Source of the DNA: Octopus vulgaris | Lineage: Eukaryota | DNA: 64,000 nucleotides | NCBI GenBank assembly: GCA_951406725.2 | Contig: OX597819.1 | Location: 79,670,001-79,734,000, forward strand | Reading direction: 5' to 3' | Part shown: piece after piece, positions 2,675 through 54,640 of the stretch | How the letters are laid out: every line of letters starts with the position of its first letter | Numbering within the stretch: position 1 is the stretch's first letter | The notes under the pieces: model-generated | The model's input: the letters and a program-made list of their open reading frames with translations, nothing else | Database searches by the model: none | What the model was told of the DNA's origin: nothing | Position numbers and translations under genes: made by a program

Positions 2675-3855
2675 TTATGTTGTTTCACATGAAATGTATT
2701 TGAAAGGTAACAATAAAATGTTTCAGAAGTGTTAGAGAACTGATTTATTTAATCAAAGTATGATCCATGTTCATTTATGACATTTACCCAACTTTCTCTA
2801 TGTCAGATATCTATCTTTAAAAAAAAATGCATCTTTTGCCATGATAAACTGTCCGAAAGATTCAATTACCTCTTCTCTATTTAAGAATGTTGTATTGCTT
2901 ATGAAAAGCTCAAAATGATGATCAGTAGGAGTAATATCAGGGGAATAGGGAGAATGTTGCAAAATCTCGTAATTCAGGCTTTGAAACTTTGGGAGCGTAG
3001 CTTAAGGAGTGTGAGGATGTGCATTGCCGTGGAGCAAAATTGGGCCATCTTTATTCACTAGTCTGTGTTTCTTTTTCAAATTCTCATGCATACACTTAAT
3101 TCCCTGGCAATACGATGTTGCTGTTAACGTTTTTCCTTTTTGCAAAAATGAATATTGAATAACTCCCTTCGCAGACCACCATACACGGACCACTAACTTT
3201 TGAAGGTGCAATGGTGGGTTTGGATAATGTTTAGGTGACTCTCCAGCATCTAACCAATGTCCTGTTCTCCTGCTGTTGTCAAAGAGTATCCATTTCTCAT
3301 CACATGTAATGTTGTCTTTTTTCAGTCGAGAAAACAATAAGCAGCACACTTCGAGGCGTCTGTTTCTTTGAACCTCTTCCAGTTGATGTAGAACAAACCT
3401 ATTCGTTTTCTAGACCTTTCCAATATTTTACAGGTGTCCAAAAACAGTTGTGCGAGATGTTTGGAGTTCTGATGAAAGTTTTCGAACCTTTGTTCTCGGA
3501 TTTTGTTCAATTTAATTCATTTAATTCACCATGCTGAGTATCTGATTTTGGCCTACCCCTTGGTTTATTTTCAAGGCTATCATCTGCTGAACGAGAGCTT
3601 TGGAACCATCTCTGAAAAATTCTGATGTCAACAAAACCATTACCAAAGGCCCACTTGATATTCCATAGAGCTTTTGCGGCAGAGTAACCCAGTTTGTACT
3701 CATACGAGAAAATCACTGAACATAGTTTGGCTGTTATCATTTTCATTTCCATATTGTTGGGAAAGAAAAAAGTTTAAATGCAAGGTATTACATAATTAAG
3801 TTTTTAAATTACTGAAATAACAAGTAATTAAAAATGGGACATTTCATGTGGAAAA

Positions 3856-7620: not shown

Positions 7621-8167
7621 GATATTTGATTAAATAGCCACATCACAGCACGTAAAAGAAGCCATAGTTTTACGGAGTTACATTTCTACAGCCATCTGAT
7701 GACACGATAACAGCATAAACTATGTCTGGTGGAGTTTAAATTTCAGTGGCAGGGAAAGGAAAGTGAGTTCAGAATACCTAATTACCAATGGCATGTAACT
7801 AGTAGAGCTCTGAAGTCGTAGTCTTCTGTGGTAGTGGAATAACAGACAGTTCGTCTGTCGATGAAGAGCGCGTCTATCCGCGTGAACTGATGCGAATTGC
7901 AGGACTCAGGGAACATCGACACCGCGAACGCACATTGCGGCCCCGGGATCCTATAGGTCTGCTCGCTTAGCCAGCGGGGTGGCGTCATTTGAAGGCTAAA
8001 ACAATGCGAAGCGCATTGTAGGCAGCAATGTGTAACAACATCTGATAGCCTGGTCGGTCCCGGTGATATACATATATATATAAACATGAGATCGCCATGT
8101 TGATTCGCTAGCTTCTGCACGCATTTTTTTTCTCTCCTTGTTTCTTTCTGTGTTTCTTTTCTGTGTA

Positions 8168-13430: not shown

Positions 13431-13920
13431 TATAGTCATTAAACTCCTTTCTGTCTGCAAAAAGTGATACGCTTGGATGCATACCTACGGACAAACACAT
13501 AAACGCACCCAGGCACTTTATTGTCTCTTAAATAATCTTAATGTCCACTCAAACATTTCATCTTCTATCCACTATTTTCACACATACATACATACATACA
13601 TACATACATACATACATACATACATGCATACATACATACATACATACATACATACATACTTACATGCATGAATACATGCATAATTTCATACACACACACA
13701 CATATATATGTACACATACATATGTAAATTAATGTAAACAGCCATGTTCGCATTGTGTTACCAAAATGGAAAACTGTGTCATTAAATGCGACTAGGGAGT
13801 TTGAACACCTACATTGCTAGAAATAAGAGCTAAAACGGTCTAATGCTGTAGTTAAAGCGCATAACTATATACATATATGCTGTGAGGAATTTTAATTGCC
13901 CAAACACCGATCCAGAATTC

Positions 13921-13970
13921 CTTATACTGACCGAACAGTTTCGGCTATATACGTAACATCATCAGTAAAG
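13921..13970 (-). ncRNA. Degenerate type I hammerhead ribozyme motif
   Basis: Minus strand reads CTTTA-CTGATGA-tGTTAcgtataTAGCc-GAAAC-tgttcg-GTC-AGTATAAG; core boxes are intact, but stem I is out of register and pair 10.1-11.1 is mismatched. Confidence 0.55.
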
Positions 13971-14160
13971 ATCTCTCGGCTGATACCGGGCTTAATTCCC
14001 TCTCAGTATATATGTACTCACCATAAAAAAACGTATGGATAATTTAGCGAATCGCTAATGTGCATACAAAAATTAATATAAACAGCCATGTGCAATATTT
14101 ACAGAAAGGAAAAACTGTAAATGTCACTAAATGCGACGAGGGTGTCAGGACGCGTATATG

Positions 14161-17025: not shown

Positions 17026-17334
17026 TGTATATATACATATATATAAGAAAATGAGATGACAAAAGAATAAACGATTCTCTCATGAATTCGTTAGTTTCGT
17101 TAGTTGTTTCTGTTATAAGAGTCGGTGGAGTCTTATTTGAGTGCGTGAGTAACATCTTATAGCTTCATCGGAGCCTCAAAGAGAAAGTGCAATTTATTAT
17201 GGGAAAACAATTACATTTATACCTATACATACATACATACATACATACATACATACATGCATTTATATATATATATATATGTATATGTATGTATGTATAT
17301 AAATATATATTTATGTATATATGTATATATGTAC

Positions 17335-17366
<32 letters not shown>

Positions 17367-17652
17367 TTCAACAATTGAGGGTAAAATTAATTAATTATTA
17401 ATTAATTTCACCAAGTGTTCAGTATGCAAAGGGACCATTTAAGGCGAATTCAAATTATTACAATATATAAAAGGGCTTAGTAAAATAAATTACTTTGCCG
17501 CATACTGAACTCATTAGAAATAGCAGCTAAAAAACTTTTTTAAAAACCATTTCTAATACTTAAAGAAAATCTCTCTCGTATAGTGTTTGGTCAACTCAAC
17601 TCACGAAAGTTTGGGGGTAAAGACATAAAAAAAATCAAATGCAAAGGTTATT

Positions 17653-17704
17653 TGAGAACGTACGTTTCAAGATTAGTCATCAAGACACTTCTATCATCAG
17701 CTCA
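17653..17704 (-). ncRNA. Type I hammerhead ribozyme
   Basis: Exact reverse complement of 18294-18345. Confidence 0.75.
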
Positions 17705-18293
17705 GAAACTCCATGGTTTGGATTTGAAAACACTGAAAGTGAGAGCATACTCTTTCGGCCTCTCATCGCCTTTGAAGATCTGCTCGTAACTAACAGTGCC
17801 AACAAACTCAAACATGCAAGCGAAGAATTTCTGTCCTCCCCTTTCCACCAGCGTGGGTTAAAATCAACAAACACTCTGCTTATTTCGGTAAAATCCGAAG
17901 CATTAATTAGAGGGAGATTAATTATAATTTCAACAATTGAGGGTAAAATTAATTAATTATTAATTAATTTCACCAAGTGTTCAGTATGCAAAGGGACCGT
18001 TTAAGGCGAATTCAAATTATTACAATATATAAAAGGGCTTAGTAAAATAAATTACTTTGCCGCATACTGAACTCATTAGAAATAGCAGCTAAAAAACTTT
18101 TTTAAAAACCATTTCTAATACTTAAAGAAAATCTCTCTCGTATAGTGTTTGGTCAACTCAACTCACGAAAGTTTGGGGGTAAAGACATAAAAAAATCAAA
18201 TGCAAAGGTTACGAGCAGATCTTCGAAGGCGATGAGAGGCCGAAAGAGTATGCTCTCACTTTCAGTGTTTTCAAATCCAAACCATGGAGTTTC

Positions 18294-18345
18294 TGAGCTG
18301 ATGATAGAAGTGTCTTGATGACTAATCTTGAAACGTACGTTCTCA
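18294..18345 (+). ncRNA. Type I hammerhead ribozyme
   Basis: TGAG-CTGATGA-tAGAagtGTCttgatGACtaaTCTt-GAAAC-GTAC-GTT^CTCA: stem I TGAG/CTCA, canonical core, palindromic AACGTACGTT stem III, U-U at 10.1/11.1. Confidence 0.75.
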
Positions 18346-18527
18346 AATAACCTTTGCATTTGATTTTTTTTATGTCTTTACCCCAAACTTTCGTGAGTTG
18401 AATTGACCAAACACTATACGAGAGAGATTTTCTTTAAGTATTAGAAATGGTTTTTAAAAAAGTTTTTTAGCTGCTATTTCTAATGAGTTCAGTATGCGGC
18501 AAAGTAATTTATTTTACTAAGCCCTTT

Positions 18528-18570
<43 letters not shown>

Positions 18571-21755: not shown

Positions 21756-21879
21756 GATCATTAATAATGCATTTTTTTTTTCCTTTTGAGTGTCAATTCT
21801 TCGAATGGCTAAAATGGTTAATTGTTGTGGTTTAAGCAGATAATCTCGGGTCAAGTCAGTTGTTTTATATATGTCTTTA

Positions 21880-22720
21880 AATATTGGCTTCATATTTTGG
21901 AACAAGGTCAATAATTTCGGGAGAGACGAATCGATTATATCGGCCCTAGTGCTAAACTGGTACTTATGTTATTAACACCGAAATGATGAAAGGCAAAGCT
22001 GACCTCAGCAGCATTTGGACGCGGGCATAAAGCTGCTAAGTATTTTTCCCGGCGTGCTAACGATTCTCCCAGCCCATCGCCTTCTTTCTATATTAATTTC
22101 AAATTTTGACACAAGGCCAGCAATTTCGGGAGATGGGGTGCATCGATTACATCGACCTCAGTAATTAACTGGTACTTATTTTACCGACGCCGATAAAGAT
22201 AAAGGCAAAGTCGACCTCGGCGGAATTCGAACACAACGTAAAGACAGACGAAATGTCGCTAAGACTTTTGCCCAGCGTGTTAACGATTCTGCCAGCTTGC
22301 CGCTTTATATGCGTTCAAATTTTTTTCTACAATAGGCACCAGGCCTGAAATTTGAGGGATGGGGGCTAATCGATTACATCCACTTCAGAGTTCAACTGGT
22401 GTTTTTTTTTATCGATCCCGAAATAATGAAAGGCAAAGACGACCTCAGTGGAATTTAAACACAGAACATAAAGACAGGCTAAATGCCGCTAAGATTTTTG
22501 CCCGGCGCGTTAACGATTCTGCCAGCTCACCGATTTATATTTATTTAAATATTCTTTTCTACAGTAGATACAAGGCCGGAAATTTTGGAGGGAGGAGGCC
22601 AGTCGATTAGATCGATCCTAGTACGCAACTGGTATTAAATTAATTGTTCACGAAAGGATGAAAGATAAAGTCGACCTCAGCGGAATTTGAACTCAGAACG
22701 TAAAGACAGACGAAATACCA
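21880..22720 (-). mobile_element. Four head-to-tail SINE family B copies
   Basis: Repeated units with aactggtact...gaaaggcaaagtcgacctc..cggaattt; the first three end in taacgattctgccagct and the fourth is truncated. Confidence 0.85.
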
Positions 22721-23397
22721 TATCTATTTAAATATTAATCGACAAATCTGTGAGAGGTAACCATTCCTGCGATCAAGTGGAAACTTAGGTGTTGCAGCAC
22801 AGTGAGTGTGACTTTATTTCACATACGTACATCGCTAATTAATGCTTTTGAGAAAGACAAACCTTACGGTCTGCAATTCCCAATTACTTCAATTAGCGTA
22901 AAAATGGAATTATGTGACGTTAATGTATTTTTTGAAATGCTGTAGCATCTGAAGAGAAGTGAGATGATTTCAATCCCAGGTCTGAAACCATAACACCGAT
23001 TCTTTCTCACAACAGGGGTGTATGTCTTGCGTTGAAGTATTTTATCACTGACAGAATGATGAAATTAAAAGGAGATATTAATGTTATTGAAACATAAATC
23101 TTTGTTCAAAATTTAGTCACGCACACACAAACATACACACACACATACGCATACACACTTACACACACAGAAACACACACACACATACACACACACACAT
23201 TCATACATACAAGCATACACTTACACACATTCATGCAAAAGTGCTGACAGACACACGCTCACATGCACACATACACACCGCATTTGTAAATGTATATGTA
23301 TATATACATACAACTGCATATGTCGATAAGCCTATGTATATGTATATACTATTTATGTATGTATATACTATGCTACACATGTATGTATGTATATATG

Positions 23398-27339: not shown

Positions 27340-27610
27340 TCCTTTCTACTACAGGCACAAGGCCTGAAATTTATGGGAAGGGGAATCGCCAACCACATTG
27401 ACCCCAGTGCTTAACTGGTAATTAAGTTATCGACTCCTAAAAGATTGAAAGGCAAAGTCGACCTCGACGGAATATGAACTCAGAACGTGAATACGGACGA
27501 AATGCCGCGAAGCGTTCTACTCTAGGCACAAGGCCTGGAATTTTGGGCGAGTGGAATTCTCGATTACATTGATCCTCGGTGTTCAACTGGTACTTCTTTC
27601 ATTGCCCCCC
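27340..27610 (-). mobile_element. SINE family B, two partial tandem copies
   Basis: aggcacaaggcctgaaattt...gaccccagtgc..aactggta...ggcaaagtcgacctcg. Confidence 0.8.
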
Positions 27611-38940: not shown

Positions 38941-39447
38941 TATCAGGTCGTTTTCCTTGAACCTTTAGCAATTAGATTAGTGTATCACAGATAATGCTTA
39001 TTTATTCACATTGTTTTGGATTAATCATTATCTCGTAGCTTCAAGAGTTCAATGATGTGATTGTATATACATTTAGAATGACATGGTAAAGTAGGTGTGA
39101 GAAGCAAGATGCGGCTGGTTCGAGCATAAATTTCGCTAAAAGACAAAAATTATTATACCGATATCGTGCGGTTTAGCTTCGACAGAGTTACCGCATTTTA
39201 TATTGGTATAGAGCGACACAACCTATGTTTAAGTCCATTTTTTAGTCAAGTGACTAAAGATGGACTGACTCATTGTTATAAAACAAAGAATTGTGAGCGA
39301 TTGGGAGTTTGTGTTGGTAGCAGATTTTTTGTGTTGAGTTGTTGATAACGGAGTGTTTTTATAGTGAGAGCGTTAAATATTTGTTCGTTTATTACTGTTC
39401 GAATAGTTGATATTGTAAATTGTTGTTTTTTTCCCCATTGGGGGAGA

Positions 39448-40845
39448 ATGGAGAAAACGCCAGCGGGTGGCCACAGTTATTCGGCCGCAACTGGAAAAGG
39501 AACAGAAGAGGAAACGTTGGAAATAATTGAAATTGAGGTAGAACCAAGGAAAATGAAGGAATATGAAAGATTACTGGAGAAGGAGGGAGATACGTTGAAG
39601 TTAACGCCGCCTGCAGAACTGACAAGCAATGTAACAAAACGAACAGATGTATTTAAAACCATGAAAATAGCAACGAGAAAGACAGAGATTGCGACTGTGG
39701 AAGAAATTGAAGAGATTTTGAAAAGCATAAAAAAACTTACGACATATATAACAAGAGGAAGGAAGTATGCCACAGTGGAGGAGCGCTTTGCGACAGAGGA
39801 AGAGGCAATTAAGAATGCAACGGAGGCAATAAGATCGGGGGAGTGAGTACTTTTGCCTTCGTACTGTGGCAAACGTGTGGCCAGAGCGCGAGTAGGCAAA
39901 GTACCCCCAGAACTAAAAGAGACATGGCTGATGACAGCCATAATGTTCAACATGAAAGATGAGGCCAAGATACTGAAGGCCACAAGGACAAATAGAATCA
40001 ACTATTGGGGATACGGGATCGAGCTCACTCTCCAGGCAACAATAGAAGATATAAATCGGATTGCTGAGGAGATAGTGCTGCCCGACGACTTGAGATTGAG
40101 AGTAATGGTGGTGGGCAGGCCGCCTGTATGTTTTACATGTGGGGAGAAAGGCCACATGAAGGTGAGGTGCCCACAGAGAGAACAGATGGAGAAACAGGAG
40201 AGTACGGAACAGGTAGTACAGGTGGAGATGGAAGAAGAAACAACGGAGGAGGGATTCACGGTGGTGGAAAGAAAAAGAAGTGGAAGAGTGAGCCCGCCGC
40301 CAGGTAACCAGAAAAAGAAGAAAGAAGAAATGAAAGCTGCGACCAGGAGGAAGGAAGACAAAATGGTGGTGGAGAAAGAAGTGAAAAAGTAACTGGAAAA
40401 GTGTGTGAGAATGAGTTACAGAAGGAGGAAACAGTGTTGAAGACACCGGTTATTTTAGCGAAGGAGAAAGATTCAGGAATGCAGCTGTACGAGGGTGAAA
40501 TGGAGAAACTTTTCAGATTGGAGATAGAAAAGGAAAAAGTACATGAAGTGGAAGTAGAAAAGAGAAAACCAAGAAAAGGAAAAAAATAAATGGAACTTCG
40601 CAACACATGCAAAAAACAAAGAGACGGAAAGAAAAATTGTGAAATTTAAGCCTATCATAAGGGTAAGGTTAGCCACGGTTATGTATTCCGAAAATGTGAA
40701 GGCCATTGTGATCGACAAAGACACATACAAGAGACTGAGAGACATGTGCGGAGACAAGATTGACCCGCCCGGAGTGTTGGTGGAGTTCGACGAACTGCCA
40801 CCCGTAGCTGAACTCAGAGACGTGGAGCCGTTCATGAGGTATTAA
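39448..40845 (+). pseudogene. LINE ORF1/gag-like protein with CCHC zinc knuckle, disrupted
   Basis: ATG 39448, in-frame TGA 39844, CFTCGEKGHMKVRC, FTVVERKR motif and E/K-rich tail, further stop and frameshift; no ORF2 follows. Confidence 0.8.
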
Positions 40846-42396: not shown

Positions 42397-43097
42397 AAAA
42401 GATAGATGCATGTGTTGGTTAAGAAGTCTGCAGCGCAACCGCGTGGTTTTGATTTCACTTCCACTGCGCGTTATTCGAGGCAAATATATTCTACTACTGC
42501 CCCTGGTCAACCAATGTGGTGTGTATTCATATCACACATAATTCACCTGTTAACTGCGTCCAATGAGACGAGGCGTTCTCCGGTGGAGAAAAACAACCGT
42601 GATAAGATATTCATGATAAAGCCTGCCAGAACACATTAAATATGAATAGATACATTATTGTTTGGATTCTCGCTGTTCTGTGTTCAGCCCACGATTTGTT
42701 AACAGTTTGGCAGGCAACTGCACACATCAGCAAATAATTTGTGTGCTGATTCCTAAAAGACAAGAGGTCGTGCTCTTGTGACATTTATCGACCCGGCCCT
42801 GGGGTAGCTTCGACCGAGGATACACACAACAAAGTCGAAAAACTGCGGCATCTCGAAGTCCCCTTAATCCGTGAACCAGTGAATCACGGGTGCTATGAAC
42901 ACGGGAGTGGCATTAGTACAGTTTATGTTACTAACGATTGCTGTGATTAAACGGTTAGTAATAGAAGAGAGACGATGTTAGTGATAGTGGCGGTTGCGAT
43001 GGTTGTGTTAGTTATAGTCATGGCATTGATGGTCGTCGTACTGGTTGTGACGGTGATGATTGTAATAAAGGTGTGGGAGTAGGAAGAGTGATGGTAT

Positions 43098-43520
43098 TAG
43101 GCGGCGAGCTGGCAGAAACGTTAGCACGTCGGGCAAAATGCTTAGCGGTATTTCGTCTGCCGTTACGTTGTGAGTTCAAATTCCGCCGAGGTCGACTTTA
43201 CCTTTCATTCTTTCGGGGTCGATAAATTAAGTACCAGTTACGCACTGGGGTCGATGTAATCGACTTAATACCTATGTCTGTCCTTGTTTTTCCCTTCTAT
43301 GTTTAGCCCCTTGTGGGTAATAAAGAAATAGGTATTTCGTCTGCCGTTACGGTGTGAGTTCAAATTCCGCCGAGGTCGACTTTACCTTTCATCCTTTCGG
43401 GATCGATAAAGTAAGTACCAGCTACGCACTGGTGTCGATGTAATCGACTTAATACCTTTGTCTGTCCTTGATTGTCCTCTCTATGTTTAGCCCCTTGTGG
43501 GTAATAAAAAAATAGGTATT
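43098..43520 (+). mobile_element. SINE family B with a 184-bp internal tandem duplication
   Basis: Head aggcggcgagctggcagaaacgttag, B-box-like gagttcaaattcc; units 43147-43330 and 43331-43514, plus GGTATT start of a third. Confidence 0.9.
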
Positions 43521-50697: not shown

Positions 50698-51958
50698 TAA
50701 ATTCATTTATTAGCCACAAGGACTCACATGCAATAACATTACTATGACACAGACATAAAAGACAACACAGAACGATACAATGGGTTTTACGGCGTGTAAA
50801 CAATATGTAACAATAAAAAAATCTAAAAAAAATTAAAACTCACAATAGGGAAGGCGCTTTAAGGTCCTTGTGGAAAAAGCCGCAGGTGCCTGATCAACAG
50901 AGCAAGAGTCCTTCTTTGATTCCCTTTATTACAGAATTGGTCCTTTCACACTGGCCATTCTTCCAACATTCACCCACCTTCCAACAAACTAGAAGGCAAC
51001 ACTTTCCTCTTTACCCTCAACTCCCTTTGCAAATGAAACTTGAAAAAGTTGATGAGGGCTTGGCCAAGGTGGAAAGTGTCTGACTTTAGCCCTTTCAGAC
51101 GAGTCCACCATACTACCTCTTTCGCTACAACCATCAGACAAATAAAACTTGCTTGCTTCTCCCGGTCAAAGGAGGGAAGCGAAGCAATCTTCACAATGGA
51201 TTCAGCTGATAGCCGGATCCGTTCTATACATGACAGTAGGTGTTCGACATAAGCCCGCAGATCAGCAATACTCGGACACTGGACAAAGGCGTGTAGAATG
51301 GTCTCATCGTTCTGCGCACACCTCAGGCAGGCCCGGTTGAAGACACTTCCGTGCCTGTAAAGTTTATCTCGAGCAGGCAGCGCCCCTCGGTAGCACTGCC
51401 AGGCAAGGGATTTCTGGAAGTTATCCATAGGCCCAGGCCCGAAAGTTCTCCACAACAGACCAGTTAGTTGATCTTCAGCGTCGTCCAGATTTTCCCCGAG
51501 AACGTCGTCGCACTTTCCCTCCACTAGCCCTTTATAGAACGCCAGAGTGGAACTACCACCGATCGATGTCATTACCCGCCTGGCAGGGGGCTGTGAGCGC
51601 TTGACGCCACTCGAGGTGCCAAGCGCACCAGCTTGGTCAACCAGCAAACGGGGCAAGGAACGACGGTCAAGCGGTAATAGCTGACGGATATGATGTACGT
51701 GTCCGCCACCGGCGCCTGATCTTTCAGTGAAAGCTATCTCTCGGCCTATTTCCGAGTTAGATTGGCTACCATGCTCGTCACCTTGTCTCAGTTTTTCTCC
51801 ACCTGGAGGTCTGTACCAAACAAGATTCCGAGGAATTTAACAGGACTGTCTGTCCGGAGCCCAATGATGCTGTTGGACGGCATAGACTTGCTTCTCCAGG
51901 AGCCGAGTTGCAAGCTCACTGACTTTTCCGCGTTAATTTTTGCTCCTGTCACCGCTTC

Positions 51959-51960
<2 letters not shown>
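50698..51960 (-). mobile_element. 5'-truncated L1/Tx1-clade LINE (ORF2 RT C-terminus and zinc finger, 3' UTR)
   Basis: YEAVTGAKINAEKS...VKFLGILFG and LAWQCYRGALPARDKL...CLRCAQNDETILHAFVQCP; ends AATAAA before (TTA)n. Confidence 0.9.
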
Positions 51961-52042
<82 letters not shown>

Positions 52043-52044
<2 letters not shown>

Positions 52045-53050
52045 CACCATAGGACTGCAAAAATATCTACTTCAGAAGGAAGGAAAACTGATCCAGATAG
52101 CGGCAAAACACGAGCAAAACAAAAAACTGTTCTCAGTATTTAAGGAAGCTGACAAATACAAACAAGAAATCATACCACCTAATAAACATGAAGAAGAAGA
52201 AGAAGATGAAGAAACAACAAAAGCTATAAAACAAATGAAATCCAAACTAAAAATAGAACAGCAACGAACCATGATAAAACGATGGCAAGAAAAGCCCCTT
52301 CATGGTAAATACAGCACTAAACTAAACGCAAAAGAAATAGACAAAGAAAAATCCCAGCAATGGTTGAGAAGCTCAGAACTCAAAGCAGAAACAGAGGGAT
52401 TTTTAATTGCAGCACAAGACCAAAGCCTCCCCACCAGAAATTACCAAAAACATGTAATGAAAAGAAATATTACAAGTAACTGCAGAATATGTGGAGATGG
52501 ACAAGAAACAATAAATCATATTATCTCTAGCTGCCCAGTCTTGGCTAAGAAGGAATATATTCACAGACATGACAGAGTTGGAACCTACATACATTGGAAG
52601 CTATGCCAACATTATGGAATAACAACAGAAAAAAGATGGTATAGGCACACACCAGAAAAGGTCACAGAAAACGAGAAAGCAACCATAATCTGGGATATGC
52701 CGATACACACAGATAGAGAAATTAAGGCCAACAGACCAGATATAGTTGTCAGAGATCATGAAGAAAAAAAATGCTTTCTAATTGATGTATCAATACCGGC
52801 TGATGACAACGTGTCTCTAAAAGAAATGGAGAAACTCTCAAAATACAAAGACCTGGAAATAGAGGTAACTAGAATGTGGAATCTGAAAACAGAAACAATT
52901 CCTATCATAGTAGGTGCATTAGGCATGATAAAAAAATATTCAGACAAATACATAACAAAAACACCAGGACTTACAAACACATATAACATACAGAAAATTG
53001 CACTACTAGGCACTGCACACATCCTACGCAGAACACTTTCCATACAATAA
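52043..53050 (+). CDS. C-terminal part of an RLE non-LTR retrotransposon ORF (R4/Dong/HERO-type): CCHC finger and PD-(D/E)xK endonuclease; 5'-truncated but uninterrupted
   Basis: AAQDQSLPTR, CRICGDGQETINHIISSC, RHD, NRPDIV, LIDVSIP, EKLSKYKDL; 3' UTR to about 53147, then (AAT)n. Confidence 0.93.
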
Positions 53051-53186
53051 CCATCAGAGCATCACAACAAATCACAGCACATACCCAAGGCACACAGAGC
53101 TGTGCTCGGTAGTGAAGTGAAAGCACGCTATAAAAATAAAACTACTGAATAATAATAATAATAATAACAATAATAATAATAATAAC

Positions 53187-53236
<50 letters not shown>

Positions 53237-53249
53237 TGATGATGACGAC

Positions 53250-53291
<42 letters not shown>

Positions 53292-53299
53292 AATGATGA

Positions 53300-54640
53300 T
53301 GAAGGGGAAAGCAGGGTATTCTGGAGTGGGATCTGGGACAAACCTGTAAAGCATAATGATGAAGCGGAGTGGTTGCATGAAATCCAAGACAGGTTAATAA
53401 ATATAGAAAGCTAAGATTACATAAAAATAATTACAGAAATTATAAAAAAGCAGTTATGAAATTTCCCAAATTGGAAGAGCCCAGACCCGGATGGGGCCCA
53501 GGGTTATTAGATGAAGAAGCTGAAAGGGCTGCATGAAGGGATACCGCAACAGCTAGATGAATGCTTACAGGAAGGCGCAGTTCTCAGCTGGATGACAATG
53601 GGAAAGATATATGTTGTGTGTTAAGGATCCTGAAAAAGGAAATATTGCATCCAACTTTAGAGCAATAACACACCTTCCACTAATGTGGAAGCTAATGTCA
53701 GGTGCTCTGGCCGTTGAACTATATAGATGCTTGGAAAAAAAGTGGGCTACTAAATATTGAAAAGAAAGGGTGTCGAAAGACGAGCTGGGGTATGAAGGGC
53801 TAGCTCTTATTTGATAATCTAATTATCAGGAAGAGCAAGGGAAGACACACAAACTTGAGCATGGCATAGGTTGGCTATCGTAGAGCATACAATATAATAC
53901 CACACTCCTGGATAATAAGAACAACGGAAATGTATGGAATAGCAAGAAAATATAAGAAGCCTTATATGGAACAGCCTGAAGTGCTGGAGAACGGAATTGA
54001 CAGCGGGGGATCAAGTATTAGGAGAGGTGAAAATCAAGAGACGATTCTTGCTGGGAATGATCCCTTTGGGTGAAATACTACAGAAAACAAAGTTTGGGTA
54101 TGATCTGGAAAGAGGTAAGAGGAAACTGAACCACTTGCTATTCATGGACGACCTGAAGCTATTCACAAAATCTGCGGCAGAACTGGACAGCCCAGTCCAG
54201 TCAGTGCAGATTTTCCTCACTGATATTAAGATGGAGTTTGATCTCTCAAAATGTGCTACGATGGTGATGAGTCGACAAGGAAAGCTTGTCAGGGCAGAAG
54301 GTATGTGGTTGCCAAGTGATGAAATGATGAAAGTAATTCAACCTCAATCTATAAATACCTGGGAACACATGAGGCGGATAGAATCAAGCATAACAACATG
54401 AAGAAAAAGACAAGAAGAGAGTGCCCGCGGAGAGTGAGAAAAATATTATCTTCAAAGCTGAATGCCAGAAACATAATTTCGGTAGTATACTTGCGTGGAG
54501 TTGCAGTAGTTCAGTGGACAGAGAAGAAGCTAAAGGGGATGGACAGGAAATCAAGAAAGCTACTAACGATACATGGAGCCCATCATCCATGTGCAGACGC
54601 TGATTGCCTATACATGAAGAGAGCAAATGGAGGATAGATT
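53300..54640 (+). pseudogene. Older decayed reverse transcriptase region of an RLE-type LINE
   Basis: PNWKSPDPDG, NFRAIT.LPLMWKL, LNHLLFMDDLKLF, MEFDLSKCA and LYMKRANGG motifs with many stops. Confidence 0.88.

Follow-up and report, generated by a model that had tools for sequence, protein, structure and literature searches.

Does the genome of an octopus preserve traces of RNA cleavage by a hammerhead ribozyme? This question is raised by an inversion joint in a repetitive element of Octopus vulgaris, which is located a few nucleotides from the predicted cleavage site of a hammerhead. According to the original prediction, a reverse transcriptase that had passed one uncleaved or religated hammerhead reached a 5' end generated by the ribozyme and switched its template, leaving a footprint of cleavage in vivo. 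What the hammerhead contributes to Penelope-like elements has been called unclear (PMC8557442), such hammerheads were described as lacking in vivo evidence (PMC4209133) and, in the sole element of this kind that has been reconstituted, the ribozyme was reported to be dispensable (PMC11167929).

Results

Layout of the element

The features of the element are summarized in Table 1. In the window, the 64-kb stretch of DNA that was analysed as a whole and that is AT-rich and dense in microsatellites, positions 17365-18535 encompass 1.5 copies of a 562-nt unit in tandem and an inverted arm, which are together set in (TA)n. Realignment of this region reproduced the coordinates on which the original prediction was based. 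The insertion into (TA)n is young, and its tandem unit is non-coding and bears a hammerhead. When compared to positions 17365-17650, the second copy (17927-18211) carries one substitution and one indel, the arm (18208-18535) differs from the reverse complement of 17462-17790 by two substitutions and one indel, and each of the three copies, the arm included, holds one private substitution. Both outer ends of the insertion are 3' ends of the element running into (TA)n, and the plus strand entering from the left flank and the minus strand entering from the right flank would both be cDNA. The element and its layout are ordinary and such layouts have already been published, with partial tandems next to an inverted 5'-truncated copy and a bias for (TA)n being typical of Penelope-like elements (PMC8557442). 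The main family has no further copy elsewhere in the window.

Table 1. Features of the octopus element and its flanks, in window coordinates.
Feature	Position	Strand	Remarks
Left (TA)n-rich target tract	17224-17366	none	merges with the 3' end of the element
Full 562-nt unit, copy 1	17365-17926	- (hammerhead sense)	non-coding; predicted to form a highly self-paired circle
Sole (TA)3 run of the unit	17463-17469	+	arm meets the right (TA)n flank here; putative second priming site
96-codon frame from ATG	17639-17926	+	family variants without coding constraint
Type I hammerhead	17647-17709	-	core 17700-17694; GAAA 17668-17665; long helix II; predicted cut 17657|17656
Imperfect palindrome spanning the cut	17652-17670	-	candidate stall site; foot at 17652
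81-codon frame, in register with the 96-codon frame	17925-17683	-	family variants without coding constraint
Partial tandem copy 2	17927-18211	-	equals 17365-17650 (first 286 nt of the unit); stops 6-10 nt before the predicted cut
GTTA microhomology at the inversion joint	18208-18211	none	equals 17647-17650; complementary to 17787-17790
Inverted 5'-truncated arm	18208-18535	+	equals 17790 down to 17462; crosses the cut site intact
Second, identical hammerhead, within the inverted arm	18289-18351	+	C3 18298; predicted cut 18341|18342
Right (TA)n target tract	18528-18570	none	flanks the inverted arm

Structures of this type are known to trouble assemblies (PMC8557442), and the joint 17650/17790, which is seen in the assembly, is absent among the joints listed from the contigs of four public sequencing runs, both of which would be in line with a chimera introduced by the assembly or the library. 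We nevertheless consider such an artefact very improbable, since the arm carries 140 nt (17651-17790) that the adjacent copy 2 does not contain, deviates at three positions and is flanked by unique sequence, since the layout is standard for such elements, and since joints at a single locus are mostly hidden in a listing of joints from run contigs.

Other parts of the window contain further repeats. An older, (TA)n-flanked element at 13708-14159 on the minus strand, built from a ~345-nt repeat of which it holds about 1.3 units, does not align to the main 562-nt family. Its type I hammerhead is degenerate, with the core at 13965, a GUC cut at 13929|13928 and a broken helix I. An isolated, diverged copy of 5.8S rRNA at 7849-7973 on the plus strand scores above the Rfam gathering threshold, and a dispersed SINE-like repeat family is found at 21874-22730, 27395-27516 and 43095-43520; its copies of ~230 nt are arranged in tandem at 21.9-22.7 kb, and a tandem of ~185 nt occupies 43147-43520. 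The open frames at 51923-54398 (plus strand), 50973-51836 (minus), 39349-40389 (plus) and 3005-3409 (minus) resemble remnants of non-LTR retrotransposons and of a mariner-type transposase.

The repeat unit and its family

Part of the unit was found in 20 of the 24 public runs listed, and the contigs of four of them (X1-X4), of which X2 may represent RNA, were aligned to it. All four contain the head-to-tail joint 17926->17366, at depths of 437, 9846, 624 and 83, and 562 nt is therefore a standing head-to-tail unit of the family. Each such unit of a few hundred nucleotides contains one hammerhead, as is characteristic of retrozymes. At the locus itself, copy 2 ends before its hammerhead and there are no two consecutive units with complete hammerheads, while elsewhere the run contigs are too short to span them. 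In the three larger runs the half of the unit at 17366 is covered 2.0-4.5 times as deeply as the other half, in terms of contig depth, which is not equivalent to copy number; this unevenness suits a common 3' end combined with 5' truncation. The subfamily represented in the window accounts for only a small part of the family (in X1 and X3, for instance, about 3-6% of the depth at 17590), and its relatives appear to miss about 17 nt before 17774. The unit contains strong local hairpins at 17513-17557, 17381-17404 and 17729-17800, the first of which may be changed in variants suggested by loose ends at 17544/17545 in X3 and X4.

Among the substitutions listed from the family, 25 are evenly spread over the three codon positions (8/9/8), 1-nt indels are also present, and protein searches of the unit revealed no Pfam family, no homolog and no Atlas match. 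We thus conclude that the unit is non-coding, and, given the variant pattern together with the blank searches, we rejected the 96-residue plus frame and the 81-residue antisense frame as coding sequences. As a circle, the unit has a predicted folding energy of -150.5 kcal/mol compared to -111.9 +/- 6.1 kcal/mol in 40 shuffles (z -6.3). Neither the unit nor the long frames of the window contain an ORF with reverse transcriptase (RT) and GIY-YIG, and an autonomous helper element was not found in the unit or in the 64-kb window. The unit fits a non-LTR retrozyme or a non-autonomous Penelope-type element. A search with the hammerhead pattern matched 4 viral and 39 metagenome stretches, none of which aligned to the unit beyond the motif, and a 22-nt pattern of the family had no match in bacterial and archaeal genomes. 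Downstream of the hammerhead, a stretch of 78 nt (17604-17527, minus strand) leads from a donor-like GTGAGT to a pyrimidine-rich, acceptor-like AG and is close in size to the 75-bp Penelope intron; among the joints listed from the run contigs there is no corresponding spliced joint.

The hammerhead ribozyme

The assignment of the hammerhead is based on a descriptor scan and on variation within the family. Its core motif CUGANGA, the GAAA and the UH are present, and helices I and II follow each other in type I order. In minus-strand hammerhead numbering, C3 is located at 17700, G12 at 17668, A15.1 at 17665 opposite to U16.1 at 17658, and U17 at 17657. Helix I (17704-17701/17656-17653) consists of 4 bp with a weak distal extension of 3 bp, and helix III is palindromic, with only 2 bp and a GUAC loop, a property that would imply cleavage as a dimer and is reflected in the predicted pairing from unit to unit. 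The base of helix II is formed by a U-U where G10.1-C11.1 would be expected; this pair is an A-U in a related family recovered from loose ends of run contigs, and an axolotl hammerhead with a U-U at this place has been reported (PMC7229834). Rfam returned no hammerhead match at the gathering score or at E<=5, and a relaxed descriptor matched three times in the 64-kb window, two of the matches being the two hammerhead copies of this element. None of the family variants listed (40 of 71 substitution rows and 12 of 21 indel rows) falls within the 27 positions of the core, helix I and helix III (P about 0.08), and the loose ends contain relatives with a different helix II and an intact core.

The predicted active fold is weak, with an energy of -2.6 kcal/mol compared to -10.0 kcal/mol for a rival fold. 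In the predicted dimer the palindrome at 17652-17670 pairs from unit to unit in a form in which the ribozyme is inactive, with pairing probabilities of 0.7-1.0 except for position 17656 (0.17). Poor cleavage in vitro has been described for hammerheads of this type (PMC4209133). A second hammerhead-like string near 17730-17770 was discarded: its core is broken, it fails the descriptor and it is part of a stretch that is among the most variable of the unit.

The inversion joint and its distance from the cut

The geometry of the joint proposed in the original prediction holds. On the minus strand, copy 2 starts at the equivalent of 17647-17650, 6-10 nt past the cut, with 17927-18211 corresponding to 17365-17650, and the GTTA at 18208-18211 is the complement of 17787-17790, leaving an ambiguity of exactly 4 nt. 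Copy 2 is thus without 6-10 nt of the 3' cleavage product expected from a cut at 17657|17656. The breakpoint on the side of the arm is found 130-134 nt upstream of the cut, and the arm reads across the uncut site.

By chance, one named end would be located within 10 nt on the 3' side of the cut with P=0.020 and either of the two ends of the joint with P=0.039, or 0.047-0.056 if a 4-nt microhomology is required, which for a random pair of ends has itself a P of 0.023. Since the closeness was spotted after the fact, the nearness of the joint to the cut exceeds chance only weakly. Microhomology partners are 1.5-1.7 times as numerous in the stretch 17650-17656 as on average (85th-90th percentile). 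It is possible, although we are inclined to doubt it, that the same insertion acquired its near-cut joint by chance and local microhomology, with the hammerhead not being involved in its placement. Such an origin would agree with a P of 0.04-0.055 for either end of a joint matched after the fact, with the richness in microhomology partners, with the location of the other end at a distance of 130 nt and a ribozyme that was read through in two of three encounters, and with the run contigs, which display neither a depth step nor a pile-up of ends. It would also agree with the older element at 13708-14159, a counter-example that terminates about 114 nt from the equivalent cut, and with the negative data reported from Anolis (PMC11167929). 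A second joint near the cut, described in the following, argues against it.

Joints and ends in run contigs

Among the four non-tandem joints listed from the runs, only one is a true rearrangement, 17653->17537 in X1 with a depth of 44. Read as an inversion it matches 7 contiguous letters and read as a step back it matches 2, and it is a probable second inversion joint, different from the assembled one, in a run that could derive from the same sample as the window. Its cDNA end would be located at 17650-17653, at a distance of 3-6 nt from the cut (P of about 0.025-0.04 under the null). As the kind of this joint is our own reading and alignment is easier in conserved regions, this evidence is soft. 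We left out the remaining three joints (17541->17646, 17677->17774 and 17679->17774), in which diverged relatives have a stretch replaced or skipped.

The ratio of median depths upstream and downstream of the cut is 1.0, 0.81, 1.08 and 1.11 in the four runs, again as contig depth rather than copy number, and this flat profile implies that most copies do not end there. The contigs of the four runs contain no pile-up of molecule starts or ends on the unit, and among the loose ends listed (19 of 187) none of the nine classed as 'behind' falls into 17640-17660. Contig ends at 17650/17651 and 17657-17659 mimic a peak at the cut but resemble graph breaks, as they are found ~30 nt from the common variants at 17680/17683 and 17627/17628.

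A proposed mechanism of insertion

Taken together, we favour, with a probability of about 0.45, an insertion by a Penelope-type enzyme, in which both ends of the target were primed, the resulting cDNAs were joined at GTTA and the hammerhead site probably served the RT as a minor stop. The first cDNA would start at 17365 and, on an RNA that is either multimeric or circular, reach a length of 847 nt, passing one hammerhead before it ends at 17646-17650. The second would start internally at the (TA)3 run at 17463-17469 and end at 17786-17790, having passed an uncut hammerhead within its length of about 330 nt. The 3' ends of both cDNAs would be complementary over GTTA/TAAC and would have been joined there. 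It follows from priming at both ends that the joint has two breakpoints and that the RT would have read through the cut in two of three encounters. Comparable properties are described for the Anolis enzyme, a predicted dimer that nicks AT-rich DNA, extends the two target strands and initiates inside its RNA; its ribozyme mutants insert normally and no RNA-seq reads are reported to start or end at the cut (PMC11167929).

We regard it as likely that the joint originates from such two-ended (twin) priming rather than from a single fold-back. In the latter case, a single RT would have reached a 5' end made by the ribozyme and its cDNA would have snapped back via GTTA onto the first copy and copied 330 nt prior to its junction with the flank. 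The geometry permits this, copy 1 and the arm are 99% identical, R2 proteins give rise to snap-back joints at low frequency (PMC11331408), 5' junctions of R2 are set by ribozyme cuts (PMC3774820), and linear retrozyme monomers and multimers have been found in vivo (PMC7229834). However, at 17595 the arm holds the base of the family majority, unlike both tandem copies, its outer end is located on a target-like run as expected of a primed end, and a fold-back would require both cleavage and the rarer route and still leave 6-10 nt missing, which renders it improbable. The base at 17595 is a weak hint towards a separate template of the arm; since each copy has one private substitution, it could reflect a later mutation and a separate template is for this reason favoured only weakly, leaving a fold-back open. 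A second candidate marker at 17773 was dropped, as it is a CpG site and the base of the arm is present in near-identical contigs.

The cause of the first cDNA end near the cut has to be considered on its own. Chance in combination with microhomology may well account for it. A 5' end of the RNA made by the ribozyme, which would then require a trim of 6-10 nt, is a somewhat less probable cause, and a stall at the hammerhead palindrome appears unlikely; of the two causes linked to the hammerhead, the ribozyme-made end is the likelier. A stall would explain both near-cut ends, that of the assembled joint and that in X1, since both fall on the palindrome foot at 17652, but a special stall at this place is less obvious in an RNA that is predicted to be structured throughout.

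Discussion

Our results retain one part of the original prediction and replace another. That an RT had passed one hammerhead and ended near the next cut is supported, with the second joint in X1 ending near the same place. In contrast, a template switch of a single cDNA at a ribozyme-made 5' end does not stand as formulated, and the arm is more readily explained by a second cDNA, primed from the other end of the target. The proposed model is unsupported in its stated form because the tandem is the standing 562-nt unit of the family in all four runs, because the arm passes the cut without interruption and terminates 130-134 nt upstream of it, because contig depth has no step across the cut and because a stall at the palindrome would give the same end without cleavage. 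For the claim of a footprint of cleavage in vivo, one or two joints are too few, and the flat depth and the end predicted by a palindrome stall weigh against it. The support for a role of the hammerhead is limited since there are only two joints, the first of which was found after the fact. The two near-cut joints thus hint at a ribozyme site that stops the RT in the animal but do not show it.

It is conceivable, albeit in our estimate less probable than its opposite, that the hammerhead cuts in vivo, that linear multimers with a ribozyme-made 5' end serve as templates besides circles and that joints cluster 3-10 nt downstream of the cut. If this is true, the many copies in the genome constitute a fossil record of hammerhead cleavage and two-ended priming in Penelope-type elements, which can be read from the assembly alone. 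A peak of breakpoints at the cut, if found, would indicate, at the level of DNA, the copying of cleaved RNA in the germ line, as in R2, and it would test the circle-template model for retrozymes. In the literature searched, which included few subscription journals, we found no map of breakpoints relative to the hammerhead cut in Penelope-type elements, and the value of the locus lies in offering a cheap test on a young family of high copy number.

The described properties relate the octopus element to several known systems. Non-LTR retrozymes are considered to be derived from Penelope-like elements (Li et al., bioRxiv 10.64898/2026.07.22.740005). With those of metazoans the octopus element shares a tandem unit that is non-coding, low in GC and equipped with a single type I hammerhead, a strongly self-paired circle, which is here a prediction, an insertion that exceeds one unit and a proposed mobilisation by Penelope-like elements (PMC7229834; 10.64898/2026.07.22.740005). 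Its length of 562 nt is above the 170-400 nt given for retrozymes in one account (PMC7229834) and inside the range of 51-972 bp in another (10.64898/2026.07.22.740005). Unlike in retrozymes, there are only 1.5 tandem units combined with an inverted arm, and both circle and cleavage are predicted.

The partial tandem, the inverted 5'-truncated copy and the microsatellite target resemble pseudo-LTR insertions of Penelope-like elements (Craig et al. 2021, PMC8557442), whose hammerheads equally combine a small palindromic helix III and a short helix I with a long helix II and occur in pairs 100-700 bp apart on opposite strands (PMC4209133; PMC8557442). Comparable in its mode of insertion is Poseidon PAc of Anolis carolinensis, where the 3' end of the insertion is likewise found downstream of the hammerhead, which fits internal initiation, the target is AT-rich and both strands are extended (PMC11167929). 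PAc is autonomous, and its RNA-seq is described as without ends at the cut, whereas the octopus family has two DNA joints near it (PMC11167929). In contrast to autonomous Penelope-like elements, the octopus unit is without an RT/GIY-YIG ORF, no helper was found in the regions searched, and U-U takes the place of G10.1-C11.1.

The joining of two cDNAs has a counterpart in the twin priming of L1, in which, as Ostertag and Kazazian reportedly proposed in 2001, the 3' ends of two target-primed cDNAs are joined by microhomology to yield a 5' inversion. Unlike in L1, the octopus cDNAs overlap on the tandem unit, which would require a second unit or a second RNA. Finally, although R2 employs a different ribozyme and belongs to a different class of element, and the link there was drawn from many junctions together with cleavage assays (PMC3774820), R2 with its HDV-like ribozyme provides a precedent for a ribozyme cut that is recorded in genomic 5' junctions made by microhomology (Eickbush et al. 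2013, PMC3774820).
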